From contig CAYFYU010000019.1 of assembly GCA_964347455.1 (NCBI GenBank), forward strand, positions 3,646 through 44,433: 40,788 nucleotides of DNA, written 5' to 3'. The notes beneath the pieces are model-generated. The model saw only the letters and a list, made by a program, of their open reading frames with translations. It searched no databases and had not been told where the DNA came from. Both the position numbers and the translations under genes were made by a program. Each line of letters starts with the position of its first letter. The first letter of the stretch is position 1. Positions 14,490 through 40,731 of this stretch are shown here, piece after piece. The stretch is from an uncultured Spirochaetota bacterium. Lineage in GTDB: Bacteria; Spirochaetota; B62-G9; DRHN01.

Positions 14490-15293
14490 TCAAATATTGT
14501 TGCTATCATACTTTTTTAACCGTTGGGACAAAAGAAGTGTCTTGTCACCTGCTCTTAGAAATATAAGCGTTATGACGATCAGCAGCATTATATCGGTTCT
14601 ATTAATCAAAATAAAAAAAATCGGGTAGAGGTATCGTTCACCTAATCCCATGTTTAAATAAAAAAAGGCTATGTTGAGTGTTTTCAGTAGTAAATCATTT
14701 TTCAGTAATCTTTTCCCTACAATCTTTTTACTCTTTGCCTGCTCGTGAGATTTACCTTTTCGCTCTGATGTACTTATAAGCTTTCCATAATTATTTCGTA
14801 TCTCTTCATAAACAACGCTGTCCTTTAGCGAAAATATTATTGTGTAGTATGTAAAGAGAAATCCAGTACCTAACCCAATAATCAAGTATATGAAATGGCC
14901 ATGAATCTTCCATGTAACATATCCAATAGTCGTATAGAGTACCATTTCCCCAATTCTATCAAGATATACATCGAGCCATGCGCCAAATAATGAAGTTTTA
15001 TTTAGTATTCTTGCCAGTTGACCATCAGATGCGTCAAAAATAAACGATATTTCAATTAAGAGTACGACTATTATCCTGTTCATTAGATGAAATTGTGGAG
15101 GTTTTAATAGAAGAGCAGAGGCGGCAATGAGTAACAGAAAGGAAATCACCGTAACTGAATTCGGGTTTCTTAATCCAAGTTTAATAAACAGAGGAATGAG
15201 TGGTTTTGAAATATACTTCGACGTTATGTATTCGTAAAAGGAATCAGGACGACTCTTTTTTTTGAAAGCTTGGGTTTCCGATATACTACTCAT
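14490..15293 (-). CDS. CDP-alcohol phosphatidyltransferase-family membrane protein (copy 1)
   Basis: 267 aa. DASDGQLARILNKTSLFGAWLDVYLDRIGE fits D(x)2DG(x)2AR(x)8G(x)3D(x)3D. It has multiple TM segments and a Lys/Glu-rich loop. Confidence 0.85.
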   Translation of the reverse strand: MSSISETQAFKKKSRPDSFYEYITSKYISKPLIPLFIKLGLRNPNSVTVISFLLLIAASALLLKPPQFHLMNRIIVVLLIEISFIFDASDGQLARILNKTSLFGAWLDVYLDRIGEMVLYTTIGYVTWKIHGHFIYLIIGLGTGFLFTYYTIIFSLKDSVVYEEIRNNYGKLISTSERKGKSHEQAKSKKIVGKRLLKNDLLLKTLNIAFFYLNMGLGERYLYPIFFILINRTDIMLLIVITLIFLRAGDKTLLLSQRLKKYDSNNI

Positions 15294-16080
15294 GTTGTCC
15301 TCGTATTAATGTATCATATTTTCTTAATATCCTGCCGACATAACGCGATATACCGAGAAACCTTAGGGTAGTTAAAAAGGCTGTGATGTACAACATAATG
15401 TCAATACGGTTGATAAGCACAAAGAAGCTGAGATATAGGTATCTTTCACCAATACCAAAATTAAGAAAGAAAAATATTTTTTTTACAATCGAGTAGAATT
15501 GTTTCTTTTTCTCATTGTGCGCATTTGTATTATCAGATGATTCTCTCGCAGTATTTCTTTCCTGCAGAGTTTCAAGAGTATCTAGATTCTCATACTGAAC
15601 TCTGTCAGAAAGGCTCAATGCCATGGTAAATATTGAAAGCCCGTATCCCGTGATAAGTCCAAGAAAGAGAAATCGCAGGGCACCATACTGCTGCCACGCA
15701 GTGAAGCCATAGCATATGAAAATAAGGAAATCCCCTATTCTGTCTAAAATTTTGTCCAACCAAGCACCATGTTTTGACGTTTTTCCAATAATCCTTGCGA
15801 GCTGGCCATCGGAACAGTCAAGGGCAAAGGATACTTGTATGAGTAAAGCGATCCCTATTCTAAAGAATATTGAATCAAGTAATGTGTAAAAGATTACCAT
15901 TATGGAAGGGATGATCATTAAGGCGAAGGAGTAAAAAGTTACTGTGTTTGGATTTTTCGTGCCGATTTTCTTGAAAAAAAGAGTGAAAAACGGAGCGATA
16001 TATCTTGATATCAAGTAATCGTAATAGGACTCAGTGTTAGTACCATATTTTGTAATCAGAGAATCAGCGATCTTGCCCAA
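15286..16080 (-). CDS. CDP-alcohol phosphatidyltransferase-family membrane protein (copy 2)
   Basis: 264 aa, TTG start. DCSDGQLARIIGKTSKHGAWLDKILDRIGD fits the same signature. It overlaps copy 1 by 8 nt and shares the conserved C-terminal GERYLY...INR block. Confidence 0.85.
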   Translation of the reverse strand: MGKIADSLITKYGTNTESYYDYLISRYIAPFFTLFFKKIGTKNPNTVTFYSFALMIIPSIMVIFYTLLDSIFFRIGIALLIQVSFALDCSDGQLARIIGKTSKHGAWLDKILDRIGDFLIFICYGFTAWQQYGALRFLFLGLITGYGLSIFTMALSLSDRVQYENLDTLETLQERNTARESSDNTNAHNEKKKQFYSIVKKIFFFLNFGIGERYLYLSFFVLINRIDIMLYITAFLTTLRFLGISRYVGRILRKYDTLIRGQHE

Positions 16081-16111
16081 AGCACAAACCTATCTAAGAA
16101 ATTAACGTGAA

Positions 16112-17224
16112 CTAATAGTAATTTTCAGTGTATGTAAACTTATTACGATACTTTTCCAGTACTTTGTCTCTATTTATTAATTTGTTCTCAGATAATTTAT
16201 CCACAATAAAACTGCAGGCTCTATCCATAGCATGGCCATCATTATAGTAAAAACTTTTCGAAATAAGCTCGCCTGTCTTTTTTTTATATACTGGATTACA
16301 GAAAGCTTCTTCAATTTTCTCAATGATGTTGTCTTTTTCTGGATCGTACATAGGACCGCACAATTTAATGTCAAATTCAGCCGGGGGTTTAAATACATCC
16401 TTATCATCTGTTTTTACAAAGATCATCGGCCTTTTTGTGAGAACAAATTCATAGTTGACAGCGGAATTGTCACCTATAAAGAGGTCGGCAATATAGATAA
16501 AATCCATGATATCTTCATATTGTTTATGGAAGATATAAAGGTTTTTTTGTTTGTATTTTCTCTGCCACCTCAGAATATATTTAAGATTTACTCGGTCATT
16601 GTAATGGGGTCTGATTATTAGTGTGTATTTCTTTGTAATTTTTTCGGCAAATGTTTGAAAACATCTACCAAGTGTTCCTCCACCCCATTGCCAGGTAGGC
16701 GCATATAAAATTATTTTTTTGTCTCTCTGCTTTATATTATACTTGTCTAAAATTTTTGCTTTGTCATAACTCCTGCTGAATATTGGATCCGACCGGAACA
16801 TACCAATCTTCACGACTTTGTCATCTATTCCTTCATCATTGTGGGTGAAGTTTTTCAGTTTATAAAGATCCTTTTGTCCTGTGATAAAATAGTATTCAAA
16901 TAAATTCCCATCCAGTTTTCCATCGGGATAATCAAATACCTTATCGCTTGTTCCATGATAGACAAAGACGCGTTCAAAATTTTTTCCCTGAGGAACTGAA
17001 TCGTCTGCGCTGTGGCAGAGAATTAGACCTTTCGCCTCCTTATCCAATCGTCGCAAAGATCTGTCCATTATCTTCACTTTAAATGGCCCATACCTGAATA
17101 CAAAGTAGAGAAAGGTCAACGGAAATTCCCATTGGACAATTATCTTGCCATGTAATCTTTCAAATACACCTTTTGATTGTGAAAATTGGGCAATTCGCTT
17201 GGTAAAGTAGTACAATCCTTTCAT
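16112..17224 (-). CDS. TagB/TagF-type CDP-glycerol glycerophosphotransferase-family protein, subfamily A (A1)
   Basis: Start trimmed to ATG 17224 (MKGLYYF), matching the paralog at 27009. It has VYHGTSDK, ILYAPTWQWGGG, IIRPHYN and ADLFIGDNSAVNYEFVLTKRPMIF. Confidence 0.8.
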   Translation of the reverse strand: MKGLYYFTKRIAQFSQSKGVFERLHGKIIVQWEFPLTFLYFVFRYGPFKVKIMDRSLRRLDKEAKGLILCHSADDSVPQGKNFERVFVYHGTSDKVFDYPDGKLDGNLFEYYFITGQKDLYKLKNFTHNDEGIDDKVVKIGMFRSDPIFSRSYDKAKILDKYNIKQRDKKIILYAPTWQWGGGTLGRCFQTFAEKITKKYTLIIRPHYNDRVNLKYILRWQRKYKQKNLYIFHKQYEDIMDFIYIADLFIGDNSAVNYEFVLTKRPMIFVKTDDKDVFKPPAEFDIKLCGPMYDPEKDNIIEKIEEAFCNPVYKKKTGELISKSFYYNDGHAMDRACSFIVDKLSENKLINRDKVLEKYRNKFTYTENYY

Positions 17225-17334
17225 ACAGGAGTCCCGGTTTTTATAATTTTGTGTACCCACAATACACCATTCTTTGACACATGGTCAAGATTATGTTGAA
17301 TGTCTTGAGTATGCTGCAACCAGATTCATTCACA

Positions 17335-17397: not shown

Positions 17398-18510
17398 ATG
17401 AAGCACAAGAAACGAGTGTTGTTTCTCTACAGACCTGGAATTCATCATCTCTTCCACTCATTATTCATAGCAATTGAGTTATCAAAAATACAGGATGAGT
17501 TTGAGGTTTGTATTTTAAATACCGGATTGGACATGCATAAGATAATAAAACCCGAAATAGTAAAGTATGGAGCAAAAATAAATTATATCAATCGTTCGGT
17601 ATTATTCTCGTTTTTAAAGAAAACCTACACCAATATTATAAAACTTAATAAAAAAATTATACGAGAATCAGATGCGATTCTAACAGCTTCATATAATATA
17701 CCAAGGTATTTACAGCAATACAATATACACGATAAAACCGTAATCTTTACGAGGCACGGTGCAAATATTGGTGACAATGAATTTGATAAAGGTCTTACTG
17801 AATTCGACTGTGTATTTATTACCAGCAAACAGATGTATGAACAACTGAGAGAATTGTCTCTACTGCAGAAATTAAAAAGTTATCTCATGACCGATTATTG
17901 CAAATTCGATTATCTGTTTGATAATCCAGGATTAAAATCGAAACTTTTTGACAACAATCTTCCTGTCATACTCTATAATCCCCACTTCATGAATCACAGG
18001 TCTTCTCTATATAGCGATGGTGAAAAGATTGTAAAGGCAATAGTAAAATCCAATAAATACAACATCATTCTTTCTCCGCACCCCCTTGTAAATAAATGGT
18101 ATTTTTTCCGTAGGATAAAATTACAATTTCCTAAATCCGATAGACTTATAAAAGATTGGTCTAGCATACATAAAGTGAATTTCGATTACATGAGAGCAGC
18201 AGATATATATCTGGGAGATACAAGTAGCAGTGCCTACGAATGGCTGTTTTTTGATAAGCCTATGATATTTTACGATTCTCACAATGTTGATTGGAAAAGC
18301 ATACCCTTTTACCAGTTATGGAACTGGGGCTATGTAGTAAACAATACAGAGGATCTGCTGGACCGTCTGGATAAAACAATACATGATTCTGATCCTTTTG
18401 AGAATATAAGAATGACGACAAAAAATGAAATATTTGGTGACATCGACGGGAAAGCCTCTTATCGAACAGCTTTGAAATTATATAAATTTCTTAAAGAAAG
18501 AAACGTATAA
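17398..18510 (+). CDS. Divergent TagB/TagF-type phosphotransferase-family protein, subfamily B (B1)
   Basis: 370 aa. TRHGANIGD, ILYNPHF, ILSPHPL and ADIYLGDTSSSAYEWLFFDKPMIFYD follow the Glyphos_transf pattern. It is a paralog of 35449..36564. Confidence 0.7.
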   Translation: MKHKKRVLFLYRPGIHHLFHSLFIAIELSKIQDEFEVCILNTGLDMHKIIKPEIVKYGAKINYINRSVLFSFLKKTYTNIIKLNKKIIRESDAILTASYNIPRYLQQYNIHDKTVIFTRHGANIGDNEFDKGLTEFDCVFITSKQMYEQLRELSLLQKLKSYLMTDYCKFDYLFDNPGLKSKLFDNNLPVILYNPHFMNHRSSLYSDGEKIVKAIVKSNKYNIILSPHPLVNKWYFFRRIKLQFPKSDRLIKDWSSIHKVNFDYMRAADIYLGDTSSSAYEWLFFDKPMIFYDSHNVDWKSIPFYQLWNWGYVVNNTEDLLDRLDKTIHDSDPFENIRMTTKNEIFGDIDGKASYRTALKLYKFLKERNV

Positions 18511-18593: not shown

Positions 18594-19469
18594 ATGGACA
18601 AAGAGTATACGCTTAGGCATCCTATCGTAAGTGGTCTATTCTATCCCGACCGGAGAGACGAGTTGAAAGGGGTCATTGAAAATAATCTAAAAAAAATAGA
18701 CAAGGGCCAGCTCTTCCATTCAATTGCTGAGCAGACGAATCTGAAAAGCCCTGAAAAGGAAAAGCCTCTTGTGATTATCGTTCCCCACGCCGGTTTTATC
18801 TTTTCAGGTTCCCTTCAGGCACATTCGTACGTACTCTTAGATTCATTTAAAATCGATACGGTTATAATCATTGGACCTGCCCATCAGGCGAGTTTCAAGG
18901 GAATATCCATTAACCTGGATAATGCATACCAGACGCCACTTGGAGATGTGAACGTCGATCTCGAATTCTCAGGTAGACTCATACAATATGATAGGGTATT
19001 TCAACATCACGAGGATGCTCATCTCGGTGAACATTCCATTGAGGTGCAGCTTCCCTATGTACAGCAAATTCAACCGGACGCAAAGATAGTTCCAATTCTG
19101 TTTGGAGAACAGAGCTGGGACTACTCTTTGTTATTAAAGAATGCACTAGTTTCACTATTGAGAGATAAACGTAAGAGTTATATTATTGTCGCAAGCACAG
19201 ACCTCTCTCACTATCATTCACACGTTGATGCTCAAACAATGGATAATATGATAATCGAGGACATCCGTAAACTGGATCCTGACCTTTTTTATAGTCATAT
19301 ACATGATGGCCAGGCTGAGGCATGCGGATGGGGAGGTATTTTAACCGGATTGCTCCTGGTCAAGGAGATCGGGAAGGGGGAATCGGCCATACTTCGATAC
19401 ATGGATTCAGGTGATGTTTCTGGTGACCGGAGAAAGGTAGTCGGCTATCTTTCAGCAGTACTGTACTAG
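18594..19469 (+). CDS. AmmeMemoRadiSam system protein B (Memo-like)
   Basis: 291 aa. RHPIVSGLFYP, VPHAGFIFSG, IIGPAH and STDLSHYH are typical of Memo-family proteins. Confidence 0.85.
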   Translation: MDKEYTLRHPIVSGLFYPDRRDELKGVIENNLKKIDKGQLFHSIAEQTNLKSPEKEKPLVIIVPHAGFIFSGSLQAHSYVLLDSFKIDTVIIIGPAHQASFKGISINLDNAYQTPLGDVNVDLEFSGRLIQYDRVFQHHEDAHLGEHSIEVQLPYVQQIQPDAKIVPILFGEQSWDYSLLLKNALVSLLRDKRKSYIIVASTDLSHYHSHVDAQTMDNMIIEDIRKLDPDLFYSHIHDGQAEACGWGGILTGLLLVKEIGKGESAILRYMDSGDVSGDRRKVVGYLSAVLY

Positions 19470-19554
19470 AGGTCGTCAGATCTTTGCGAACCCTTCTAAA
19501 TATCTTCTCAGATATCGAATAGGCTGTATCATTTCGAGTATAAAGAGGGGAATA

Positions 19555-20103
19555 ATGCTCAACGAAGAAGAGAGAGTTTCACTGCTGAAATTAGCCAGAA
19601 ATACGATAAACGCAAAGCTACATAAGCAACCAGAGCCTGATTTTAAACCCTTAAGCAATGTGCTCGAGCAGCCCTGCGGTGCATTTGTAACCCTTCACAA
19701 AAAGGGTGCGCTGAGAGGATGTATAGGCCTCGTACAGGCTGTAAAACCACTCTACCAAACAGTGCGGGAGATGGCTGTAGCATCTGCTTTCGATGATCCA
19801 CGTTTTCCACCACTGAGAAAGGAGGAATTTGACGACATCGAACTAGAGATATCGGTCATGTCACCTCCAAGACGCATAACCGATGTAAATGAGATAGAGG
19901 TTGGAAGACATGGTATTATTATTAAGCGAGGATATCATCAGGGTCTGTTATTACCTCAAGTGGCAACAGAGCAGGGCTGGGATAGGGATACTTTTATCGA
20001 ACATACCTGTTATAAGGCAGGTCTGAACAATGACAGCTGGAAACAGGATGGCACTGAGATTCAAATTTTTTCAGCAGAGGTATTTTCAGAGAAAGAGTTG
20101 TAG
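19555..20103 (+). CDS. AmmeMemoRadiSam system protein A (AMMECR1 domain)
   Basis: 182 aa. CGAFVTLHKKGALRGCIG, FDDPRFPPL, GRHGIII and LLPQVA are AMMECR1 hallmarks. Confidence 0.85.
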   Translation: MLNEEERVSLLKLARNTINAKLHKQPEPDFKPLSNVLEQPCGAFVTLHKKGALRGCIGLVQAVKPLYQTVREMAVASAFDDPRFPPLRKEEFDDIELEISVMSPPRRITDVNEIEVGRHGIIIKRGYHQGLLLPQVATEQGWDRDTFIEHTCYKAGLNNDSWKQDGTEIQIFSAEVFSEKEL

Positions 20104-21143
20104 AGGTGTGATTTAATCGCTTTGATGATTCTATCGGCAGTCTTGCCATCGGTATAGCTATAGATCTCTTCGAGCATCTTTTTTTGAATTTCCCTATAAT
20201 ACCCCGGTTCCTCGAGATTTTTTCGTATTATTTCCGGAAGTTTATGAATGTCGCTTACTACGTCACCGGTCTTCCAAATTCGTTTCCTCTTTCTTCCATA
20301 AAAAAAACGGATAGGGCTTTTATTATCTAGGAATATCATTGGCCGCTGGAAAGCGATATATTCGTAGGATACTCCTGATACGTCGGTGATGAGTGAATCC
20401 GCCGCTGCCATGACAGGAACAATATCGTATATTTTATTGCTGGTTTCCAGAAGAACGATATTCTTTTTTTCTGCTATATTCTCCTTTAATATTCTAACCA
20501 GTGAGTCCTGATATTTGAATAAGTTTGGATGCAGCTTTATGGTGAGCTGATATTCTTCGGGAAAGTAGAGGGGCAGCAACACTCCGAATTTCTTAAACGA
20601 GGAGTTGCCCATTTTATCCATCCACGTTGGAGCATAGAGAACATTTTTTTTAGAGGGGTCCAGCCCCAGTTTCAGAATTTCTGCATCTCTCGTATAGAAA
20701 TTGTTGAAAATCCTGTCCGTCTTTAGATTGCCGGTGATAACGCAATTATTGTTTTTATTGAGACCCTTTCTGTTGAAGTCATCGAGCATTTTTTTACCTG
20801 CAAGGCAAACCAGATCGTATTGCAGGCTCTCACGATTAAAGTTGTATGACTTGTCACTTGTGCCATGAAATACTTGAACAAATTTTACACCTTGCTCCTT
20901 AAGTGGTCGGAATGTTTTGTAGTGGAAATCCTGCAGAATCAGAATCTTTATCCCGTCATTCCTCATCGAATTGATAACGTCGGAAATCGTCTTACAGTAG
21001 CTGACGTTTATGGAGTGAAAATCCTCCTTTATGAGGCTGAGTGATAATTGCGAATTTGTATACAGAGTACCGTTCAATCTCTGGAGTAATTCCGTTATAA
21101 ATCCGATTTGATGAATTGAGCTGTCGATGTAAAAACCAAACAC
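20061..21143 (-). CDS. TagB/TagF-type glycerophosphotransferase-family protein, subfamily C (C1)
   Basis: 360 aa; GTG start with GGAG 7 nt upstream. It has VQVFHGTSDK, LYAPTWMD, IKLHPN and ADSLITDVSGVSYEYIAFQRPMIFLD. The 3' end overlaps the AMMECR1 gene by 43 nt. Confidence 0.8.
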   Translation of the reverse strand: MFGFYIDSSIHQIGFITELLQRLNGTLYTNSQLSLSLIKEDFHSINVSYCKTISDVINSMRNDGIKILILQDFHYKTFRPLKEQGVKFVQVFHGTSDKSYNFNRESLQYDLVCLAGKKMLDDFNRKGLNKNNNCVITGNLKTDRIFNNFYTRDAEILKLGLDPSKKNVLYAPTWMDKMGNSSFKKFGVLLPLYFPEEYQLTIKLHPNLFKYQDSLVRILKENIAEKKNIVLLETSNKIYDIVPVMAAADSLITDVSGVSYEYIAFQRPMIFLDNKSPIRFFYGRKRKRIWKTGDVVSDIHKLPEIIRKNLEEPGYYREIQKKMLEEIYSYTDGKTADRIIKAIKSHLYNSFSENTSAEKI

Positions 21144-21156
21144 CTCTTTTCTCCGT

Positions 21157-21185
21157 TTGAAGAATTAAAAGGTAGATGTTATATT
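21157..21185 (+). promoter_or_regulatory. Putative promoter of the 21235-28136 plus-strand operon
   Basis: TTGAAG (21157-21162), a 17-nt spacer, then TATATT (21180-21185), about 50 nt upstream of the ATG at 21235. Confidence 0.35.
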
Positions 21186-21234
21186 ATAACGCGGATGTCG
21201 ATGTATATGATATAGATAACAGGTTTTATGAAAT

Positions 21235-25185: not shown

Positions 25186-25199
25186 AAGAGGAACTTTAA

Positions 25200-32781: not shown

Positions 32782-32801
32782 TCAATTAAAGCGAACGTTT
32801 C

Positions 32802-33936: not shown

Positions 33937-33939
33937 AAG

Positions 33940-35448
33940 TTATTCTTTAAGGTAAACTTCTTTACCAGGTTTACTGTATATCAATCTATAATGCTCCCTT
34001 ATATAATTATAGTACTCTTCCAGCAATACAAGTTTCTGTGCCCAGAAAATAACGAGTTTCGCATCTTTTGTGTTTGAAATTACGAAACTGTCTAGCAGAT
34101 TCCCCGTTTTGATTCTTTTTGCAGAGGTGTCCACAAGTTCCGGGAGTGTCAATCGATTAGTCAGAAATGTTGCCATTTGAACGTCCGAAACAATGAGATC
34201 CTCCATTGTCGTATGATTTGTAACTATATCGACGAGTTCTTTTTCCTCAGGCGTGTATCCCCCAAAAACGTAATTTTTCATATATCGTGTGCTGTTATAG
34301 ATGTTTTGCATTGGAATAAGGATCACGGAAATTGCTATTATTATACGAACGAAAAGGTGCTTCAGCTGTTTTCTAACGGGAACAGTTCCAATTTGTGATT
34401 TTTCACTTATATCGAGCAATGATCGATTTAAACGTGCTGCTGATATTATCGAAAAAACTGGTATTAGGGATAGAAGATGATTTGCCCACAACCAGCTTGA
34501 CATTAAAATGTGAAACATTAATTGTGTGGTAATCCAGATTATGAAGAGTAGAAATATGGCCCTTTTATCAGTGTACAATCGGATTAATCCTAATACAGTT
34601 AATAGAAATAAACCGATTTCCTTGGTAAGGTATACTTCCCCAATTCGACTTCCAATTTTATACAGAGAGATATTAAAAAGCTGTTGAGTACCAAGTCCGA
34701 ACACCTGTGACTTTAGGGAAGGCAAATCGTAATGAATAAAGATAACTATGCTTGTTGCCATTAATACGATTAAATAGAAAAGAAACGCTCTGATAATAGA
34801 GGCGAATTTGAATTCATCAAGAACGATCTTATTTTTCGTGATAGGCGGCGCTGAAAATAGAAACAATACAGGGAAGATTAAAAAAGGCTGTGTGAGTTTG
34901 AAACCATTCATTAAGGTGAAAGCACAGGCTGAAACAATTACCCATTTTAGCTGTCGTGTTTTGTTATATCTTATTGCGGCATATATAGTACATAAGGCCA
35001 GTGCAACAGAGGGAATGATTGTCGGATGCTCTCTCATCCATCTCATAAAATAGTAATTCAATCCCAGAATGATCAACGATAACAATGCTGAGCTCCGATC
35101 GAACAATTCATTGGCTACAAAAAAGGTTCCAAGTACGATTAACAATCCGAAAGTTATCGAAACAGAGCGCATGAGAACAACAGAGTTTCCGAATAGGTTG
35201 ATCAATAAACTGAGTAACTCTATAAGCAGAGGCGGTTGTGAGAGAAATAGTGCAGAATAGAGCCGTTGGCCATGTGCGTGTTGCAATGCTGTTTGATAAT
35301 AGACACCTTCATCGTAATCGAAGCTGAAGGTGCTTTTAATCCCGATTATTTCAAAAAAGAGAAGGTACACGCAGGTTGCTATTAAAATGATAATTATATG
35401 TTTATTGAAGGTGTGAATATTTCGTTCGTTCTTTTCTGCAGTGACCAT
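33940..35448 (-). CDS. GT-C fold membrane glycosyltransferase (family 39 / ArnT-PMT_2-like)
   Basis: 502 aa, polytopic. The first-loop acidic motif FDYDEGVYYQ and SQPPL are typical of lipid-carrier-dependent GT-C enzymes. Confidence 0.75.
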   Translation of the reverse strand: MVTAEKNERNIHTFNKHIIIILIATCVYLLFFEIIGIKSTFSFDYDEGVYYQTALQHAHGQRLYSALFLSQPPLLIELLSLLINLFGNSVVLMRSVSITFGLLIVLGTFFVANELFDRSSALLSLIILGLNYYFMRWMREHPTIIPSVALALCTIYAAIRYNKTRQLKWVIVSACAFTLMNGFKLTQPFLIFPVLFLFSAPPITKNKIVLDEFKFASIIRAFLFYLIVLMATSIVIFIHYDLPSLKSQVFGLGTQQLFNISLYKIGSRIGEVYLTKEIGLFLLTVLGLIRLYTDKRAIFLLFIIWITTQLMFHILMSSWLWANHLLSLIPVFSIISAARLNRSLLDISEKSQIGTVPVRKQLKHLFVRIIIAISVILIPMQNIYNSTRYMKNYVFGGYTPEEKELVDIVTNHTTMEDLIVSDVQMATFLTNRLTLPELVDTSAKRIKTGNLLDSFVISNTKDAKLVIFWAQKLVLLEEYYNYIREHYRLIYSKPGKEVYLKE

Positions 35449-36564
35449 TTAGATTTTATTGAGTTCAAGATACTTGTAAAGCTTGGCCGCATTCCGGCTT
35501 GAGGCCTTTCCATCGATAGTACCAAAAGTGTATGTCATCATTTTTTCTCTTTTACCTTTGTACCTGTCGGGTACCCTAAAAGTTCTTTCGAGGCTATCGA
35601 TGAGCTGATATTGATCGGTTACTACTTCACCCAATTCCCAAAATTTGTAATATGGATTGTTTTTCCAATCGATGTCATGGGAGTTGTAGAATATTATCGG
35701 TTTATTGAAGTACAGCCATTCGTATACGCTGCTGCTGACATCTCCCAGGTATAGATCCGCAATCTTCATATAATCGAAATTTATCTTATGGATACTCGAC
35801 CAGTCCTTGTGCAGTCTCACTGACCTCGGATATCTCTTTTTAATCCGATCAAATAAAAACCAGGTGTTTACAAGTGGGTGGGGTGAGAGAATTACGTTGT
35901 ATTTTTTAGTTTGGACAATCGTTGACACTATCTTCTCACTGTCCTTGTAGAAGGAGGACAACTTTTTATCATAATGAGGATTGTAAAATATCACTGGAAG
36001 ATCGTTGTTGAAAATATATAGGGGAGGGTTTTCCTTATTGTAGAATAGATAGTCAAATTTTGAATAATCAACCAGGAGATAATCCTTTAATTTTTCAAGG
36101 ATGTTGAGTTCCTTAAACTGGTCATACATCTTTTTGCTTGGAATGAAAACGAGGTCGAAATCATAAAGATCTTTTTTGAAAGTATATTCCCTATCGCCAG
36201 TACCATGCCTGGTAAATACGACGAAGCGATTCCTCAGACCAAATTTTTCAAGAACACGAGGAACTTCATAGGAGCCCGACAGTATAACGTCTGACCCGCG
36301 AATTATTTTTTTATTGTACCTAATTATGTTCGAATATGTCTGATTGAGGCGTACGGGTAGTTTAAATCTATTATATAGATAGGTGACATCGGCTTTCTGA
36401 TTTTTTAATTCGTGTTTAATAATCCGGTGCAGTTCCTCACTGGAGTTGAGAATACAAATCTCATATTTATCCTGAATTTTTGACAGTTCAATTGCGATAT
36501 AGAGTGAGTGAAAAATATGATGTAAACCCTGCCGGTAAAAAAAGGTTATCCTCTTGTTACTCAT
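35449..36564 (-). CDS. Divergent TagB/TagF-type phosphotransferase-family protein, subfamily B (B2)
   Basis: 371 aa. By my count, 32 of 50 aligned N-terminal residues are identical to B1. It has TRHGTGD, IFYNPHY, ILSPHPL and ADLYLGDVSSSVYEWLYFNKPIIFYN. Confidence 0.7.
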   Translation of the reverse strand: MSNKRITFFYRQGLHHIFHSLYIAIELSKIQDKYEICILNSSEELHRIIKHELKNQKADVTYLYNRFKLPVRLNQTYSNIIRYNKKIIRGSDVILSGSYEVPRVLEKFGLRNRFVVFTRHGTGDREYTFKKDLYDFDLVFIPSKKMYDQFKELNILEKLKDYLLVDYSKFDYLFYNKENPPLYIFNNDLPVIFYNPHYDKKLSSFYKDSEKIVSTIVQTKKYNVILSPHPLVNTWFLFDRIKKRYPRSVRLHKDWSSIHKINFDYMKIADLYLGDVSSSVYEWLYFNKPIIFYNSHDIDWKNNPYYKFWELGEVVTDQYQLIDSLERTFRVPDRYKGKREKMMTYTFGTIDGKASSRNAAKLYKYLELNKI

Positions 36565-36603: not shown

Positions 36604-37641
36604 TTACAACAGGTTTAATATAGCCTCTTTAGCCCGGCTTGCTGCATAACCGTCGGGTTTATAAAAGGTTTTTTGAAGATGAGAGATAATCCGATCCATA
36701 TATTCTTCTGGGTTCTTGAGTGTTTGCAAAATCGCCACCCAGAGCCTGTCAGGATTAGTAACGACTTTTCCACATTCCCATAGTGTCGTTTTTTGTTTAC
36801 TCCAGAACCATTTCGGCTTATTACTCAGAAAAATAAACGGTCTCTTAAATGCGAGATATTCCCTCGTTACTGCTGAAACATCGCTTAACAGTACATCGGA
36901 GGCCGCCATAACGGGGACAATGTCCGGTGATTTGTCGATTAAGAGAGTATCTTTATGTGGTTGGAGCTGCTTCCGCATCTCCTCAACCTCATTTTTTCTG
37001 TATCGTATCAGATTCGGATGCAATTTCACAATAAGATTGATATTGTCGGGCTTGTCCGTTATGAGTGTGCTATGAAATTTCTTCCAAGACGAATTAGACG
37101 CCCGGTCCACCCAGGTTGGCGCATAGAGAACGGTTTTCTTATTTGGGTTCATCCTCAGTTTGGCCAGTTCATCGTTTCTTGAGAGTTCGCCTCTGAACAC
37201 CCTGTCAAGCTTGGGATAACCGATTATTACTCCATTGTTTTTTTTCAACAAACCTTTCTTTCTATATCTTTCAAGAGCATGTTCTCCGGGTATGAAAAAT
37301 AGGTCGTATTCAAGAACGTCCCTCCTGTAATCGTATACCTTATCGGATGTGCCATGAAAAACCTGTACGTGCCTAACACCCTCAAGGTCCTTGAAATGTC
37401 TAATGTGATAGTCAGGATATATGATGACCCTCACCCCTGAAGTTTTCATTTGATTTCTAATGTCAGCTATTGTTTTGTAATATACAAATTTCAAGTTTGG
37501 ATGATACTTGTTGAGATTATTAAATGTCAAAGCAGAGTCTGTGTATATAGTTCCACCTGTCTCAGAGGCAATGCAGGATATACTGGGAATTTCCTGGATT
37601 GAATAATCTATGTAATAGGCGATTTTATTTTGGATGTTCAT
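36604..37641 (-). CDS. TagB/TagF-type glycerophosphotransferase-family protein, subfamily C (C3)
   Basis: I chose ATG 37641 by alignment to C1/C2 N-termini; alternatives are 37656 and 37662. It has VQVFHGTSDK, LYAPTWVD, VKLHPN and SDVLLSDVSAVTREYLAFKRPFIFL. Confidence 0.8.
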   Translation of the reverse strand: MNIQNKIAYYIDYSIQEIPSISCIASETGGTIYTDSALTFNNLNKYHPNLKFVYYKTIADIRNQMKTSGVRVIIYPDYHIRHFKDLEGVRHVQVFHGTSDKVYDYRRDVLEYDLFFIPGEHALERYRKKGLLKKNNGVIIGYPKLDRVFRGELSRNDELAKLRMNPNKKTVLYAPTWVDRASNSSWKKFHSTLITDKPDNINLIVKLHPNLIRYRKNEVEEMRKQLQPHKDTLLIDKSPDIVPVMAASDVLLSDVSAVTREYLAFKRPFIFLSNKPKWFWSKQKTTLWECGKVVTNPDRLWVAILQTLKNPEEYMDRIISHLQKTFYKPDGYAASRAKEAILNLL

Positions 37642-38386
37642 ACATGGATTGTTCATAGGCAATAATTGCGGGGTAGACGAGCTCTTCCGCCTTTTTTAAA
37701 TCTTCCGGAAAATCGATCTCTATATTTGGAATTTGAGAAACATCGAGTGGATAAAATGGAGCCTCGTCGAGGATGTCCTCTACTGCCTTCTCAAAAAAGA
37801 GGTTTTTATCACCTCTTTTGATGTAATAGTTAAGAGCATCGATAAAGTGGCCCGTTATTTCCTTGCCGAATTTGGCAACACCGATAAACTCACCCTTAGC
37901 TTCATCAAGTGTAATATCTTTACCGAGCTTTATTATACGGTTATCTGAATTGCTTGTGAACTTGACCTCCTCATCACCGCAGGTAATATGGTTGACGGCA
38001 AGTACATTTTGACCTTTATGCTGGATGAGAAATTTGACAATGTCGCTATGCATAAATACATCGGCGTTAAAATATATGAAATCCTGATCTCTGAACTCGT
38101 TGCGGGTAAGAAAGAGGGAGTATATTGTGTTGGTCGTATTAAATTCAGGGTTTTCAACATAGGTTATCTTGACCTTATCCCTATAGAGAGGTCCGATAAA
38201 ATCACGGATCTTTTTTTTCAAATAACCGATTACAATTATGGCCTTTGCGATTCCAACCGCGAGCACCGCATCAAGCTGATGCTCAAGGATGGTTTTTCCA
38301 CCTATTCGAAGGAGGCATTTGGGTACGTCTTTTGTAAGAGGCATAAGCCTTCGAGATGCACCTGCTGCAAGTAATATCGCTTTCAT
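37625..38386 (-). CDS. LicC/IspD-like nucleotidyltransferase (candidate CDP-alcohol-forming cytidylyltransferase)
   Basis: Start trimmed to ATG 38386 (MKAILLAAGASRRL...VPKCLL). The C-terminal IEIDFPEDL block matches the other two LicC-like domains in the island. Confidence 0.75.
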   Translation of the reverse strand: MKAILLAAGASRRLMPLTKDVPKCLLRIGGKTILEHQLDAVLAVGIAKAIIVIGYLKKKIRDFIGPLYRDKVKITYVENPEFNTTNTIYSLFLTRNEFRDQDFIYFNADVFMHSDIVKFLIQHKGQNVLAVNHITCGDEEVKFTSNSDNRIIKLGKDITLDEAKGEFIGVAKFGKEITGHFIDALNYYIKRGDKNLFFEKAVEDILDEAPFYPLDVSQIPNIEIDFPEDLKKAEELVYPAIIAYEQSMYEHPK

Positions 38387-38432
38387 AACTTCATTCGGAT
38401 GATTAATTAAAGAATAAACAATCTTATCTTTT

Positions 38433-39377
38433 TTAAGAATGCTCCTCGGGAGGACCAAGAATTGCAGGATTAACCGGAGGAGCCATCTTTTCAAAAGGAA
38501 GGTCCTTATATGTGTCTTCCAATAACCGATCATACTCTTCTGATGGTATCTTTAACTCAAGATATCCAGCATAGAATTCTCCCTTATTTTTTGCACTGTA
38601 CGTTGCATCCTCGAAAGACATTCCGTATGGTGGCTTTCCATTCTTGAATGTTCTCAGCCGTAAATGTTTAAACCTCATATTTTTAAGGAGCGCTTTTCCC
38701 AGGTGAATAACATAGCCATCTAGAAAAAAGTCAAAATTACACGTTTTATATCCCTTTTTAAATATCGATTTTGTAAAATATAAATGGGCCCATCCCTTAT
38801 TAGAGAAATAGCTCAGATCATGTTTTTTCCATGCATCCATCCTGACGAGCATACAGCAGGCGTTGGTATAGCCATAGTGGAAAGGTTTCTTTCGTGTATA
38901 ATCGGTGATAAATTCCGGATCACTGCGTTCTTTATCCCCAATAACTTTGATACCTCTCACACCCCCTACTACTTGGCCAACAGACATAACCAATGGGTCC
39001 AAATCGAAACAGGGAAGGGAGTTTTTCAGAACATCATCCCGTAGTATTATACAATCCGAATCCAAGATAAAAACATAATCAGCAGTTACATATTTCAGAC
39101 CAATAGTGAGCGACTCACCATGTCCCTTGCTTTTAAGAAAAGATATAGGTATACCTGTCTTATATGAGGGGAGTGGCATTCCATTTCGTACGAGTGTGAT
39201 CGATCCCCTTTCATGTAAATATCTGGTATATTCTCTCAGTAATTTTTCCGGGGAATGATCATCAACGACGATAATTTGCCCAATTTCTTCATCAGGAATA
39301 TGCGATCGTATCGACTCATATAACTGTCTGAAGAGTAAGTACTGGTTTCTCACAGGTATCAGTATATCCACAGGCAT
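38433..39377 (-). CDS. Glycosyltransferase family 2 protein
   Basis: 314 aa; first gene of the 11-gene minus-strand operon. It has VDILIPVRNQ, IVVDDHSPE and ILDSDCI (DxD). Confidence 0.75.
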   Translation of the reverse strand: MPVDILIPVRNQYLLFRQLYESIRSHIPDEEIGQIIVVDDHSPEKLLREYTRYLHERGSITLVRNGMPLPSYKTGIPISFLKSKGHGESLTIGLKYVTADYVFILDSDCIILRDDVLKNSLPCFDLDPLVMSVGQVVGGVRGIKVIGDKERSDPEFITDYTRKKPFHYGYTNACCMLVRMDAWKKHDLSYFSNKGWAHLYFTKSIFKKGYKTCNFDFFLDGYVIHLGKALLKNMRFKHLRLRTFKNGKPPYGMSFEDATYSAKNKGEFYAGYLELKIPSEEYDRLLEDTYKDLPFEKMAPPVNPAILGPPEEHS

Positions 39378-39383
39378 GGCCTA

Positions 39384-39412
39384 ATAATAAAAGGGCCCTC
39401 ATAGATAGTCAA
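39384..39412 (-). promoter_or_regulatory. Near-consensus promoter abutting the operon start codon (possible leaderless transcript)
   Basis: On the minus strand: TTGACT (39407-39412), a 17-nt spacer, TATTAT (39384-39389), then only TAGGCC before the ATG at 39377. No Shine-Dalgarno sequence is present. Confidence 0.4.
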
Positions 39413-39759
39413 CCGTATTCATAGTGGATCCTATACGTTATGTGGAAATTGCTAAAAACATAATTACTTTGTCAATAATAAGTTAGAAACTGATTGTTGG
39501 GCCGGTCTTTTTTGCATAGTACAATAGAGAATTGTTCACCTGCGACTCATTATATTGCTTTTGTATAGCACATATACCATTTATGTGGTAACTTTGAATT
39601 GAAGATACCATTCGATGAACAGGGTAGGCTGCGAGAAGATAGTACGAAGATCTTGCCTTTGATGAGACCACGCCTCCTTTTGATGTTTCAATTTTTGGTG
39701 CCCACAGAGGTGGAAGAGTGAAAGATGCCGATATTTAAGAAATATAGAAGAGGATTTTA

Positions 39760-40731
39760 ATGATGAATATAGTCATCGTCGGTGCTGGTTCGTTCGGAAC
39801 CTCATTAGGCAACATCATTGCTAAAAAGAGAGATCTCAAGGTTACGGTTCTCGCACGAAGCAGTGCGGTTGTACGCTCGATCAATGATTTTCATATCAAC
39901 AACAAATACTTTCCCAACTTTTATCTGGATCCTAGTTTAGTAGCATCAAATAATAAGAAGCTATTAACAAAGGCTGACATCATTTTTCTAGCGCTACCAT
40001 CAACTCAGGTTTTAAATTATGTTGTTAAGAATAAAAATATTTTTTGCGAAAACGCTGAAGTTGTCGTTTTATCAAAAGGATTTGGAAAAGGAGACAAGAC
40101 CATTGTCCAGAGTGTTGGTGCATTGATTGAAAACCAGCTCGTTTCTTTCAAGGGACCTACCTTTGCGGCAGATCTTATTCATAATAACCCTACCGGGTTT
40201 ACCGTTGCTTGTAAGGATCAATCGTTGTTCGACCTTTTTCAAAAAATTTTTCAGGACACAAACATCTATCTTGATTTTTCCACAGACGTCTTAGGGGTTG
40301 AAATTACCAGTGCACTTAAAAACATCTATGCAATCCTCCTCGGTATCATCGACGCCTATTTCAATTCTGCTAATACGAGGTTTCTGATTCTGACGAAGGC
40401 CTTCAATGAATTGAAGAATGCCGTTACTGTTCTCGGGGGCTCAGAGGATACTCTATACAAATTCTGCGGGTTTGGTGATTTTGGACTTACCGCACTAAAT
40501 GATCTGAGCAGGAATCGAACTTTGGGGCTGTTAATGGGAAAGGGATTTCTTGATAATAATATTTCAAACAGCGTTATTTTAGAGGGAAAACGAACGCTGA
40601 ATATTACATACAATGCTGTTCGAACCCGCGGGGATTTTTATTTGATGGGGGAGCTTCATACATTATTCAACAGCAATTATAAAGTGCATGAGTTTATCAG
40701 CAATGTATTTCAAAAGATAAGGGAGGATTAA
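39760..40731 (+). CDS. gpsA: NAD(P)H-dependent glycerol-3-phosphate dehydrogenase
   Basis: 323 aa with RBS GAAGAGGA. It has IVIVGAGSFGTSLG, NNKYFPNFYL, KGPTFAADL, LKNIYAILLGI and LSRNRTLGLLMGKG. It matches the GpsA pattern but diverges from the canonical motifs. Confidence 0.85.
   Translation: MMNIVIVGAGSFGTSLGNIIAKKRDLKVTVLARSSAVVRSINDFHINNKYFPNFYLDPSLVASNNKKLLTKADIIFLALPSTQVLNYVVKNKNIFCENAEVVVLSKGFGKGDKTIVQSVGALIENQLVSFKGPTFAADLIHNNPTGFTVACKDQSLFDLFQKIFQDTNIYLDFSTDVLGVEITSALKNIYAILLGIIDAYFNSANTRFLILTKAFNELKNAVTVLGGSEDTLYKFCGFGDFGLTALNDLSRNRTLGLLMGKGFLDNNISNSVILEGKRTLNITYNAVRTRGDFYLMGELHTLFNSNYKVHEFISNVFQKIRED

Follow-up and report, generated by a model that had tools for sequence, protein, structure and literature searches.

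Treponema denticola makes CMP-2-aminoethylphosphonate (CMP-AEP), and whole cells give phosphonate NMR signals; the activity of its Tde1415 protein has been demonstrated biochemically, and about 33% of Ppm proteins are of the PepM-nucleotidyltransferase (PepM-NT) fusion type (PMC6697681). The outer-membrane glycolipid of this organism has a diacylglycerol anchor and lacks Kdo and heptose (PMC3776326). TagF-family polymerases have an extra N-terminal domain, and TarL binds its donor polyol through the loop following the catalytic His (PMC10901376). TagF-like capsule polymerases are established in Gram-negatives (PMC5974469, PMC10299916). A phosphonolipid has been predicted for the "Burkholderiales_CDP-OH" group-1 clusters, whose signature consists of PepM-NT, Ppd, AEPT, a second PntC, and CDP-OH-type lipid genes (PMC8942020).

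We analyzed a 40,788-nucleotide stretch of DNA (the window) from an uncultured Spirochaetota bacterium (GCA_964347455.1, contig CAYFYU010000019.1, positions 3,646 to 44,433, forward strand). ORF listing and translation confirmed the 26 consecutive genes that an earlier note had counted between 14490 and 40731 (~26 kb), and the products were examined with Pfam profiles at curated cutoffs and NCBIfam models at equivalog cutoffs (Table 1). The TagF, CDP-OH, phosphonate, GT2, GtrA, GT-C, ABC, and GpsA families listed there exceeded curated cutoffs or retained signature motifs. Every family assignment of the earlier note stood: seven TagB/TagF-type ORFs, two tandem CDP-alcohol phosphotransferases, PepM-Ppd-PhnW, three LicC-type NT domains, four GT2 enzymes, a trio of GtrA, polyprenol-phosphate GT, and GT-C, and GpsA. 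Its list of functions omitted 4 of the 26 ORFs (Memo, AMMECR1, the P-loop protein, and DUF2334), and gene orientation gives six strand blocks (3+3+1+7+11+1 genes) rather than its five transcription units. The most likely product of the cluster is a surface molecule of phosphate-linked sugars that bears AEP. T. denticola, where CMP-AEP and a diacylglycerol-anchored glycolipid were observed, is a precedent.

Table 1. Genes of the island, in window coordinates, with the profile evidence for each.
Feature	Coordinates	Strand	Evidence
CDP-alcohol phosphotransferase, second of tandem pair, integral membrane	14490-15293	-	PF01066, 54.8 bits
CDP-alcohol phosphotransferase, first of tandem pair	15286-16080	-	PF01066, 48 bits
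TagF-like clade A2, core copy	16112-17260	-	PF04464, 85 bits
TagF-like type B, copy 2	17398-18510	+	PF04464, 37.8 bits over C-terminal half
Memo-like	18594-19469	+	PF01875, 204 bits
AMMECR1	19555-20103	+	PF01871, 208 bits
TagF-like type C, copy 1	20061-21143	-	PF04464, 80 bits
GT2 pair, core	21235-22038 and 22038-22934	+	PF00535, 56 and 72 bits
Small P-loop protein	22915-23472	+	AAA_18 and Zeta_toxin, sub-threshold only
DUF2334 protein	23456-24127	+	44.5 bits
TagF-like type C, copy 2	24154-25185	+	PF04464, 70.9 bits
ABC half-transporter, fused TMD-NBD	25200-26936	+	PF00664, 128 bits; PF00005, 115 bits
TagF-like clade A1	27009-28136	+	PF04464, 87.6 bits
PhnW/AepZ, AEP:pyruvate aminotransferase	28139-29263	-	TIGR03301, 422 bits (cutoff 361)
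PntC, AEP cytidylyltransferase (to CMP-AEP)	29256-29993	-	Tde1415 PntC domain match; PF12804/PF00483 NT domain
Ppd, phosphonopyruvate decarboxylase	30050-31180	-	TIGR03297, 409 bits (cutoff 313)
PEP mutase fused to C-terminal LicC/MobA-type NT domain	31180-32781	-	TIGR02320, 389 bits (cutoff 320); PF13714 + PF12804
Polyprenyl-phosphate-type GT2	32802-33581	-	PF00535, 107 bits
GtrA	33490-33936	-	PF04138, 67 bits
GT-C, PMT_2/ArnT type	33940-35448	-	PF13231, 50.5 bits
TagF-like type B, copy 1	35449-36564	-	PF04464, 39.8 bits; motifs retained
TagF-like type C, copy 3	36604-37662	-	PF04464, 83.7 bits
LicC-like nucleotidyltransferase	37625-38533	-	PF00483, 59.5 bits
GT2	38433-39377	-	PF00535, 47 bits
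GpsA, NAD(P)H-dependent glycerol-3-phosphate dehydrogenase	39760-40731	+	PF01210 + PF07479, 96 bits each; right-hand boundary

The AEP branch is well supported, and the profile matches demonstrate, at the family level, a predicted capacity to make CMP-AEP. PepM, Ppd, and PhnW all exceeded their equivalog cutoffs, and the EDKxxxxxNS motif of PepM was present in the translation. PntC matched the PntC domain of Tde1415 (6PD1/6PD2) with 219.5 bits (E=5.6e-64) and retained the equivalents of R15, K25, and K153. These enzymes would take PEP to phosphonopyruvate (PepM), phosphonoacetaldehyde (Ppd), AEP (PhnW), and finally CMP-AEP (PntC). The three NT domains (PF12804/PF00483) lie in PntC, in the C-terminal half of the PEP mutase fusion, and in the LicC-like protein.

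A check for syntenic loci found that the locus recurs in uncultured Spirochaetota (related loci carry L numbers). The core conserved among relatives consists of two GT2 genes, the P-loop protein, DUF2334, TagF-C, ABC, TagF-A2, two CDP-OH genes, and an NT. L006 is collinear with the window from 20061 to 36564, with protein identities of 74 to 96%. In L004 and L008, the ABC gene, CDP-OH pair, AEP cassette, TagF-like genes, and NT plus GT2 or GpsA are contiguous, which supports a single functional system. The earlier proposal of one or two AEP-decorated phosphodiester polymers keeps its AEP branch but is better read as one system rearranged here.

The head-group genes differ among relatives. Besides AEP, we found a nonorthologous HEP cassette with LicD (L019), an NT plus methyltransferase (L010), and a CDP-ribitol-type fusion (IspD-SDR, with two further TagF-like genes, in L012). 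L019 matches the window in GpsA (75%), ABC (85%), and a cyclase gene (90%, compared through L007), but its PepM is only 31% identical and is accompanied by Fe-ADH, NT, and LicD. This gene content points to cassette exchange at one chromosomal site. AEP is not intrinsic to the system, as four or more head-group cassettes can replace one another. We read the island as the local form of a modular locus for an envelope glycoconjugate in an uncultured Spirochaetota lineage.

Seven PF04464 paralogues within 26 kb, each over the curated threshold (gathering score, 22.1 bits), is far beyond chance. At the family and motif level, all seven appear catalytically intact. The A1 and A2 genes are 57% identical and were assigned to clades from a simple neighbor-joining tree without support values; the A2 gene lies upstream of the CDP-OH pair in every case. 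The two type B copies are 55% identical; copy 2 retained both invariant His residues and the D-x-S and DG motifs, and copy 1, which had no PDB sequence match, has orthologues in L004 and L006. For type C, copy 1 has orthologues in L006, L012, and L018 (61 to 88%), and copy 2 orthologues have the ABC gene directly downstream in every case. Copy 3, whose His215 aligns with TarL catalytic H433, is always paired with the LicC-like NT, with orthologues in L004, L008, L010, L012, and L019.

All seven proteins are GT-B cores only (343 to 382 amino acids). Because they are short and lack a polymerase-type N-terminal domain, enzymes that add one unit at a time, yielding a complex phospho-oligosaccharide or glycolipid, would be no less likely than a long polymer of the teichoic-acid type. 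A teichoic-acid-like capsule of the group-2 type, built by TagF-like polymerases as in Actinobacillus pleuropneumoniae, Neisseria meningitidis, and Haemophilus influenzae b, would agree with the Gram-negative polymerases cited above and with sequence and fold matches that include Cps3D (8QOY) and Bcs3 (8A0C). We consider it very improbable, as the window's enzymes have a single domain of ~350 amino acids where such polymerases have several, its exporter belongs to the type-IV (MsbA-fold) half-transporters, and neither the window nor the relatives contained a KpsM/T-type ABC-2 transporter, KpsE/D, or KpsS/C gene.

Both CDP-alcohol phosphotransferases have an intact D-x2-D-G-x2-A-R-x8-G-x3-D-x3-D motif in translation (DASDGQLARILNKTSLFGAWLDVYLD in the second), and the second gene follows the first in all of L004, L008, L010, L012, L017, and L018. 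The best PDB match of the first was AF2299 (4O6M; E=1.2e-11), followed by IPCT/DIPPS (4MND), and none of its 43 family matches had a domain fusion. The LicC-like NT, a putative synthase of CDP-glycerol or another CDP-alcohol, best matched LicC (1JYK; E=8.5e-18) and sits beside GpsA in the window, L008, and L019. Its true start is probably the Met at ~38386, giving 253 amino acids; homologues have 248 to 264.

In structure, CMP-AEP is analogous to CDP-ethanolamine, which ethanolamine phosphotransferases of the CDP-alcohol family use as donor. This argues for two unrelated products, with the AEP cassette and CDP-alcohol phosphotransferases making a phosphonolipid beside a separate phosphate-linked glycan from the TagF-like and GT2 enzymes. 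In L004, the CDP-OH pair and the AEP cassette are immediate neighbors, and PepM-NT, Ppd, AEPT, and a second PntC together with CDP-OH-type genes fit the group-1 phosphonolipid signature (PMC8942020). However, the pair also occurs where there is no phosphonate cassette (L010, L012, and L017), again with TagF-A2 as its partner, is missing from the AEP loci L001, L002, and L020, and lies 12 kb from the cassette in the window. The nearest relatives with solved structures, AF2299 and DIPPS, are not lipid choline/ethanolamine phosphotransferases, and we judge two products to be improbable.

Comparison with relatives also gave a lead on the so far unknown phosphonate-attaching step, for which TagF-A1 is a candidate as a CMP-AEP-dependent aminoethylphosphonyl transferase. 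A1-clade genes adjoin the AEP cassette on 9 of 10 informative contigs (window, L001, L002, L004/5, L006, L008, and L020/21). In L001, L002, and L020/21 (four contigs, three distinct loci), the neighborhood of the cassette contains no other gene of phosphotransferase type. L009 stops just past its A1 gene, with 28 codons of the following ORF visible. Counting against this reading, the 12-kb contig L017 has an A1-clade gene (P0008) and no AEP cassette on that contig. The AlphaFold2 model of A1 (pLDDT 93.9) best matched TagF (3L7K; TM 0.68). The A1 clade has a 2-residue insertion after His90 and a K95T change replacing a Lys invariant in 28 of 28 A2/A3 sequences compared, and four of its eight clade-specific positions fall at residues 95 to 107, directly past the first invariant His. 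His90 would correspond to TarL H300 and Lys95 to a donor-contacting residue, as judged from motif position and whole-fold superposition rather than residue-level structural alignment. Since the HEP-type cassette of L019 is accompanied by LicD as well as TagF-A, the TagF-A copy beside a cassette could instead prepare the acceptor.

Our preferred reading, to which we give a probability of about 0.55, is a noncanonical, ABC-exported teichoic-acid-like glycolipid or glycan carrying AEP, in which A1 and the cassette form a swappable, serotype-like head-group module. As the earlier note had reported, profile searches of the window found no family match to TagO/WecA, TagD, TagGH, LCP, Wzx, or Wzy; TagO/WecA or Wzx-type genes may lie elsewhere in the genome. 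We infer the product, the lipid that serves as acceptor, and all donors other than CMP-AEP. GpsA and the LicC-like NT would provide CDP-glycerol or a related CDP-alcohol. At the cytoplasmic face of the inner membrane, GT2 and the short, primase-sized TagF-like enzymes would extend a sugar/alcohol-phosphate chain stepwise on a diacylglycerol glycolipid, a lipid A-core-like molecule, or a polyprenol, with the tandem CDP-alcohol phosphotransferases substituting for TagO to form the membrane-proximal phosphodiester. TagF-A1 would then use CMP-AEP rather than a CDP-alcohol, joining AEP via a phosphonate ester. The ABC exporter would flip the completed lipid-linked product, and at the outer face the GtrA/GT2/GT-C trio would add a sugar from a polyprenyl-phosphate donor.

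All related loci, even the minimal L020, carry an orthologue of the exporter (63 to 93%). The exporter is an ABC_membrane plus ABC_tran half-transporter and is predicted to be an MsbA-like exporter or flippase only at the family level because its TIGR02203 score (451 bits) is below the equivalog cutoff (602). That score counts against a further alternative, in which TagF-like enzymes place single glycerol-phosphate, AEP, or other phospho-alcohols on lipid A-core (or equivalent outer-membrane glycolipid) sugars before MsbA flips the molecule, giving a phosphodiester-rich lipooligosaccharide without a teichoic chain. Distant TagF-A relatives (31 to 33% identity) do occur in loci resembling LPS-core loci: L016 has an LpxL-type acyltransferase (PF03279), TagD, two TagF-like genes, a GT9 heptosyltransferase, GT4, GT2, and an MsbA-like ABC gene, and L014/15 has an MsbA-like ABC gene, GT4, GT9, inositol-1-phosphate synthase, two TagF-like genes, and two NTs. 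A Wzy_C/O-antigen-ligase-family gene lies at the edge of L012, and polymerase-type N-terminal domains (PMC10901376) are missing from 7 of 7 TagF-like enzymes in the window. Still, no lpx, kdo, heptosyltransferase, or Lpt gene was found in the window or close spirochaetal loci. We hold core decoration to be possible but doubtful.

Among the remaining genes, the adjacent GT2 pair is kept in L006, L008, L010, L012, and L018, and the P-loop and DUF2334 pair in these and L019. The GT2 at 38433-39377 travels with A1 or the phosphonate cassette: L004 and L019 carry 67% orthologues, and in L020 it lies directly upstream of A1. The trio is accessory: it is present in L006, and L020 has a GT2-GtrA fusion with no GT-C called. 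Its GT2 had AglJ, PgfS, PpgS, and ArnC as best NCBIfam matches, all sub-threshold.

The earlier suggestion that the island runs beyond the right window edge did not hold, and it ends at GpsA. The metagenome contig L007, 99.5% identical in nucleotides to the window over 40381-40788, continues past GpsA into unrelated genes, namely a cyclase (the counterpart of the L019 PF04199 gene) and DUF1116-like, FdrA-like, MocA-like, and XdhC-like genes, labeled by eye from translations rather than by profile search. In L012, Memo and AMMECR1 together mark the outer edge of the locus, and in the window these two genes are a conserved flank of the ancestral locus outside the pathway.

Profile searches placed the island ORFs in the families that the earlier note had named, and the ORF listing and translation gave 26 consecutive ORFs between 14490 and 40731, as claimed, in six strand blocks by orientation rather than five. 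The observation itself is confirmed; its interpretation, one or two teichoic-acid-like glycopolymers decorated with 2-aminoethylphosphonate (AEP), is supported in part and refined. Besides seven TagF-like (PF04464, Glyphos_transf) proteins and two tandem CDP-alcohol phosphotransferases (CDP-OH, PF01066), profile matches cover three LicC/MobA-type nucleotidyltransferase (NT) domains, four GT2 enzymes, GtrA, a PMT_2-type GT-C, a fused TMD-NBD ABC exporter, and GpsA. Memo, AMMECR1, a small P-loop protein, and a DUF2334 protein also lie within the interval. The Memo-like and AMMECR1 genes have no radical-SAM partner nearby; the usual trio, AmmeMemoRadiSam, includes one. As the note had stated, no window ORF, flank included, matched the TagO/WecA, TagD (PF01467), TagGH (ABC-2), LCP, Wzx, or Wzy families, and on the first four of these we rejected a canonical wall teichoic acid (WTA) locus. 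The longest-ORF starts of the LicC-like NT and of the GT2 at 32802-33581 are probably too far upstream, with homologue-based starts near 38386 (~253 aa) and 33524, respectively, so the listed gene overlaps are partly ORF-calling artifacts.

Features of the island and its left flank, with strand where assigned
Feature	Coordinates	Strand	Profile match or remark
LPG_synthase_C (MprF C-terminal-like) protein	51-926		stand-alone domain
Sulfur-metabolism cluster	5363-11660		
PGA_cap (CapA-like) protein	11909-13255		N-terminal membrane segment
160-aa ORF	13988-14470	-	no Pfam match; HExxH motif (AHECAHI)
CDP-OH, second of the pair	14490-15293	-	PF01066, 48-55 bits for the pair (GA 22)
CDP-OH, second	15286-16080	-	
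TagF-A2	16112-17260	-	PF04464, 37.8-87.6 bits for all seven TagF-like ORFs (GA 22.1)
TagF-B	17398	+	
Memo-like and AMMECR1	18594-20103		
TagF-C	20061	-	
P-loop and DUF2334 pair	22915-24127		P-loop: weak AAA_18 and Zeta_toxin similarity
TagF-C	24154	+	
ABC exporter	25200-26936	+	
TagF-A1	27009-28136	+	
PhnW/AepZ	28139-29263	-	TIGR03301, over equivalog cut-off
PntC	29256-29993	-	
Ppd	30050-31180	-	TIGR03297, over equivalog cut-off
PepM-NT	31180-32781	-	TIGR02320, over equivalog cut-off
GT2, GtrA, and GT-C, adjacent	32802-35448		PF00535, 107 bits; PF04138, 67 bits; PF13231, 50.5 bits
TagF-B	35449	-	
TagF-C	36604-37662	-	
LicC-like NT	37625-38533	-	
GpsA	39760-40731	+	

Sequence comparison sorted the seven TagF-like proteins into type A (two members, 57% identical), type B (two, 55%), and type C (three, 33-40%). 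Two invariant histidines and the Y-x-P, D-x-S, DG, and R motifs are kept in all seven, and H90 and H209 (A1 numbering) are invariant both in these paralogues and in 39 A-family sequences. The two invariant catalytic histidines of TarL are H300 and H433, whose roles have been shown (Schertzer 2005, via PMC10901376). His215 of the type C protein at 36604-37662 aligns with H433, and the equivalence of H90 to H300 was set by motif position. The GT-B fold was checked for A1 among the seven: its AlphaFold (AF2) model (pLDDT 93.9) had TagF (3L7K/3L7J) as the best Foldseek match (TM 0.65-0.69, prob 1.0), followed by Cps3D, TarL, and Bcs3. TagF-B gave no PDB sequence match and is assigned by Pfam and the conserved motifs only. 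We consider all seven ORFs TagF-like family members with putative alcohol-phosphate transfer from a CDP-alcohol. Polymerizing PF04464 members have an extra N-terminal domain (PMC10901376). Since the window proteins are 343-382 aa and consist of the GT-B core only, without that domain, they resemble single-addition enzymes of the TagB/TarF size class, and a long homopolymer is not implied.

The neighboring cassette would provide a different donor. PepM, Ppd, and PhnW/AepZ all score over their NCBIfam equivalog cut-offs, and the 10-residue EDKxxxxxNS motif is present in PepM, the PEP mutase. Fusions of PepM to an NT are common, at ~33% of Ppm proteins (PMC6697681). The separate PntC matched the PntC domain of Treponema denticola Tde1415 (6PD1) at 219.5 bits (E=5.6e-64), and its R16, K26, and K154 align with the catalytic Arg/Lys/Lys of that enzyme (R15, K25, and K153). 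Tde1415 makes CMP-AEP and prefers AEP, and mutants at the three residues have been described (PMC6697681). By these matches, the window encodes the enzymes of an AEP/Pnt pathway, with CMP-AEP and a phosphonylated surface product as the predicted outcome. We rejected a diffusible phosphonate natural product, as the cassette is of the plain AEP/PntC type and is set among envelope genes. Cell-surface decoration is the presumed role of about half of the phosphonate gene clusters in bacteria.

TagF-A homologues are rare (43 matches at at least 54% identity, nearly all from metagenomes or MAGs), and the contigs that carry them, given L numbers here, revealed a recurring locus. Memo and AMMECR1 stand at the outer edge, followed by a TagF-C on the opposite strand. 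Next come GT2, GT2, P-loop, DUF2334, sometimes a methyltransferase, TagF-C, the ABC exporter, TagF-A2, and two CDP-OH genes, and after these a variable cassette. At the end of the locus, TagF-C and the LicC-like NT lie in the opposite orientation, followed by GpsA or carAB. One relative, L006, is collinear with window positions 20061-36564 at 74-96% protein identity. The window differs from the recurring order in that the TagF-A2/CDP-OH/CDP-OH block, with one TagF-B copy, is inverted beyond Memo/AMMECR1; because of this, we read the two-part look of the island as one locus rearranged, with Memo/AMMECR1 as flank markers. At the L012 locus, the Memo/AMMECR1 pair likewise forms the outer edge and is followed by a Wzy_C/O-antigen-ligase-family gene. 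The P-loop/DUF2334 pair is strictly conserved in the core of every full-size locus; a kinase acting on sugars or lipids, together with a deacetylase-like enzyme, is one possibility.

At least four forms of the variable cassette occur. The window, L004/5, L006, and L008 share TagF-A1, PhnW, PntC, Ppd, and PepM-NT. L019 (JGI 3300041080, cassette region 4493-12361) occupies the same chromosomal site as the window (cyclase 90%, GpsA 75%, and ABC exporter 85% identical) and carries a non-orthologous PepM-NT (31% identity) and Ppd (37%) with an Fe-alcohol dehydrogenase, an NT, and LicD, a gene content that implies a 2-hydroxyethylphosphonate (HEP) head group instead of AEP. The third form, in L010/11, is an NT with a SAM methyltransferase and a further TagF-A copy, and the fourth, in L012/13, is an IspD-SDR fusion (CDP-ribitol type) with two further TagF-like genes. 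Judged by gene content, the locus follows the pattern of surface-antigen loci whose head-group modules can be exchanged. We found no description in the open literature of cassette-style exchange of phosphonate and polyol-phosphate head groups in such a locus. Two gene calls in L006, an 84%-identical relative, were irregular: its ABC exporter (5018-6707) was called as two ORFs of 333 and 224 aa, and its GT-C (13704-15212) was called at 368 aa though a 502-aa ORF exists. Frameshifts, assembly errors, and phase variation are all possible causes.

The step that follows CMP-AEP formation has been described as unknown (PMC6697681, PMC8942020). A neighbor-joining tree split the A family into three clades, each with its own surroundings. 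The A2 clade is always followed by the CDP-OH pair, and the A3 clade adjoins the NT plus methyltransferase or the HEP cassette. Members of the A1 clade, which contains the protein at 27009-28136, adjoin the AEP cassette in the window, L001, L002, L004/5, L006, L008, and L020/21. The exception is L017, where unrelated genes follow A1 on the contig. L009 has the gene order of L008 and stops 204 bp past A1, with 28 codons of the next ORF; the L018 contig stops right after A1 and is uninformative for linkage. At L001 and L002, the cassette genes are the only window-island orthologues near A1. The reduced L020/21 locus consists of a GT2-GtrA fusion, a GT2 of the 38433 type, A1, PepM-NT, Ppd, a fusion of PntC to the AEP transaminase (AEPT), and an ABC exporter; LicD, CDP-OH, and further TagF-like genes are absent from it.

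Eight clade-specific positions set A1 apart from A2 and A3. Four of these fall at residues 95-107, directly past the first invariant His, where the otherwise invariant Lys95 is replaced by Thr and two residues are inserted. In TarL, the donor polyol is bound by the loop that follows the catalytic His (PMC10901376). With residue equivalence taken from motif position, an ammonium-ended donor would be in keeping with a missing Lys close to the head-group site. We propose, at a probability of roughly one in three, that A1 is the missing Pnt “phosphonyl transferase,” which would use CMP-AEP and not a CDP-alcohol to form a phosphonate ester on a glycolipid or glycan, and that the locus makes a spirochetal, MsbA-type-exported, lipoteichoic-acid-like outer-membrane glycolipid whose head group (AEP, HEP, ribitol-phosphate, or a methylated amino-alcohol) is swapped among strains like a serotype determinant. 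As a hypothesis, the assignment of A1 as a CMP-AEP transferase is specific, testable, and potentially significant. The locus family offers a concrete, cloneable candidate in this 375-aa soluble or peripheral TagF-type enzyme, and L020 offers a minimal module of five to seven genes that could be expressed heterologously. Our literature search found no characterized AEP/CMP-AEP transferase and no characterized TagF-like genes in spirochetes, no later open-access report of a post-CMP-AEP transferase, and no description in the open literature of any TagF clade with a specific link to AEP biosynthesis. A scan of a genome collection with TagF-A1 returned only three loci, two in Spirochaetes/Spirochaetota MAGs and one in an “uncultured bacterium” MAG; all are MAGs, and therefore no cultured or characterized relative was present there.

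The acceptor could be of another kind. Because distant relatives of the A family (31-33% identity) are encoded in LPS-core-like loci with MsbA-like exporters, a lipid A-core type of acceptor, flipped by the ABC exporter, is a serious alternative. Another alternative is a diacylglycerol-anchored glycolipid, for which T. denticola provides a precedent (PMC3776326). If the product is an ordinary decorated lipooligosaccharide, what remains of the finding is that known enzyme families are newly combined. The exporter, called MsbA-type in the earlier note, is a fused TMD-NBD ABC protein and shares only this architecture with MsbA; it scored 451 bits against TIGR02203 (cut-off, 602) and 442 against TIGR02204 (cut-off, 780). 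The loci of the distant A-family relatives, L014/L015 and L016, carry an LpxL-type acyltransferase, an MsbA-like ABC, a GT9 heptosyltransferase, and GT4, together with TagD or with inositol-1-phosphate synthase plus NT genes, a content that suggests glycerol-phosphate or inositol-phosphate on LPS cores in other phyla.

Both CDP-OH proteins have the complete D(x)2DG(x)2AR(x)8G(x)3D(x)3D motif and are closest to AF2299 and IPCT/DIPPS. We assigned them no specific function because they score far under every NCBIfam equivalog cut-off. Their narrow distribution matches that of TagF-A. L010, L012, and L017 have the pair but no phosphonate genes, and the AEP loci L001, L002, and L020 lack it. On this distribution, we take the pair to be core enzymes, and dedicated phosphonolipid synthases were rejected. 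With low confidence, they might form a membrane-proximal phosphodiester. The LicC-like NT, with LicC as its best PDB match (E=8.5e-18), is always paired with TagF-C and neighbors GpsA in the window, L008, and L019; it may supply CDP-glycerol or a related CDP-alcohol, replacing TagD. The GtrA/GT2/GT-C trio is accessory, being found in the window and L006, while L020 has the GT2-GtrA fusion with no GT-C called.

The Gram-positive WTA pathway comprises TagO/TagA/TagB/TagD/TagF/TagGH and LCP, with TarL and TarK. The window shares with it the PF04464 GT-B phosphotransferases with two invariant histidines, the logic of cytidylyl-activated alcohol-phosphate donors, a glycerol-3-phosphate supply gene, and, presumably, assembly on a lipid at the cytoplasmic face before ABC export. 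However, the window lacks TagA in addition to the TagO/WecA, TagD, TagGH, and LCP genes, has an MsbA-fold half-transporter and short paralogues in place of polymerases with the N-terminal domain, adds the tandem CDP-OH pair and the phosphonate cassette, and belongs to a diderm spirochete. Three-component extracytoplasmic glycosylation is known from GtrA/GtrB/GtrX, CsbB/GtcA/YfhO (lipoteichoic acid), and ArnC/ArnT. The window set likewise joins a GT2 of the polyprenyl-phosphate-sugar-synthase type, a small GtrA-family membrane protein, and a GT-C, but its GT-C belongs to the PMT_2/ArnT type rather than to YfhO or GtrX.

Phosphonyl tailoring (Pnt) clusters include T. denticola Tde1413-1415 and one from Atopobium rimae (Rice et al. 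2019, PMC6697681). The window resembles them in its PepM-NT fusion, Ppd, AEPT, PntC, spirochete host, and predicted cell-surface destination. Its PntC and AEPT are separate genes, whereas they are fused in Tde1415 and in L020. Pnt neighborhoods contain LicD-like transferases or glycosyltransferases, whereas the transferase candidate that is consistently linked here is of the TagF family and lies in a far larger phosphotransferase locus. The predicted “Burkholderiales_CDP-OH” group-1 phosphonolipid clusters (Li & Horsman 2022, PMC8942020) also have Ppm-NT, Ppd, AEPT, a second PntC, and CDP-OH-type genes. The window does not match this group: it has no alpha-ketoglutarate dioxygenase, its CDP-OH core set is independent of the cassette, and it adds the seven TagF-like genes, GT2 genes, and the ABC exporter. 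TagF-like enzymes that make teichoic-acid-like polymers are established in diderms (PMC5974469). Cps3D, Cps7D, and Bcs3 of Gram-negative group-2 capsules belong to this type, and the window shares with them TagF-type catalysis in a diderm and, presumably, a teichoic-acid-like surface product, but they are large multi-domain polymerases in kps loci, whereas the window enzymes are single-domain and have no kps export or linker genes beside them. We rejected a group-2 capsule, with no KpsMT, KpsED, or KpsSC in the window or any related locus and no multi-domain polymerase.

Every component family is already known. We found no description of a locus with multiple TagF genes, a CDP-OH pair, and an MsbA-type exporter in Spirochaetota in the open literature. 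The locus family brings teichoic-acid-type phosphotransferases and head-group cassette variation to an uncultured diderm lineage of phylum level, outside the kps capsule and Gram-positive WTA frameworks, and is relevant to how LPS-poor spirochetes build their outer surface.

All named MutL relatives above 40% identity are Spirochaetota MAGs (46-50%), and the closest relative of all is 80% identical. Spirochaetes/Spirochaetota MAGs and metagenomes are likewise the source of the relatives of the island genes, and together these matches identify the host as an uncultured spirochete without a close cultured relative. A short contig with TagF-A and CDP-OH homologues (P0041/P0224) is labeled Thermodesulfovibrionales and not Spirochaetota, which may reflect horizontal transfer or mis-binning.

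The earlier note had allowed that the island might run past the right edge of the window. Window positions 40381-40788 recur at 99.5% identity in metagenome contig L007 (JABAOF010058481.1), which extends 6.5 kb beyond, into cyclase, DUF1116-like, FdrA-like, MocA-like, and XdhC-like genes (named from by-eye reading of translations), so the island ends at GpsA. The L007 cyclase is 90% identical to the PF04199 gene of L019. The window GpsA had no exact-sequence match on record. The left flank holds housekeeping and sulfur-metabolism genes, and GC is lower in the island (0.34-0.42) than in this flank (0.39-0.46). Despite the lower GC, we rejected a mobile genomic island: the window has no tRNA, its Pfam matches include no integrase or transposase, and the chromosomal site is conserved in relatives.

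Several flank genes deserve mention. The 160-aa ORF that abuts the left end of the island may encode a small metallopeptidase-like protein. The LPG_synthase_C and PGA_cap proteins are both envelope-related. The sulfur-metabolism cluster comprises a molybdopterin oxidoreductase with a Tat-like signal, an ArsR-rhodanese fusion, a cysteine desulfurase, a DsrE-like protein, an SQR/FCSD-like flavoprotein, and a second ArsR. The AEP module of the MAG locus L002 likewise has cysteine desulfurase and DsrE gene fragments near it.
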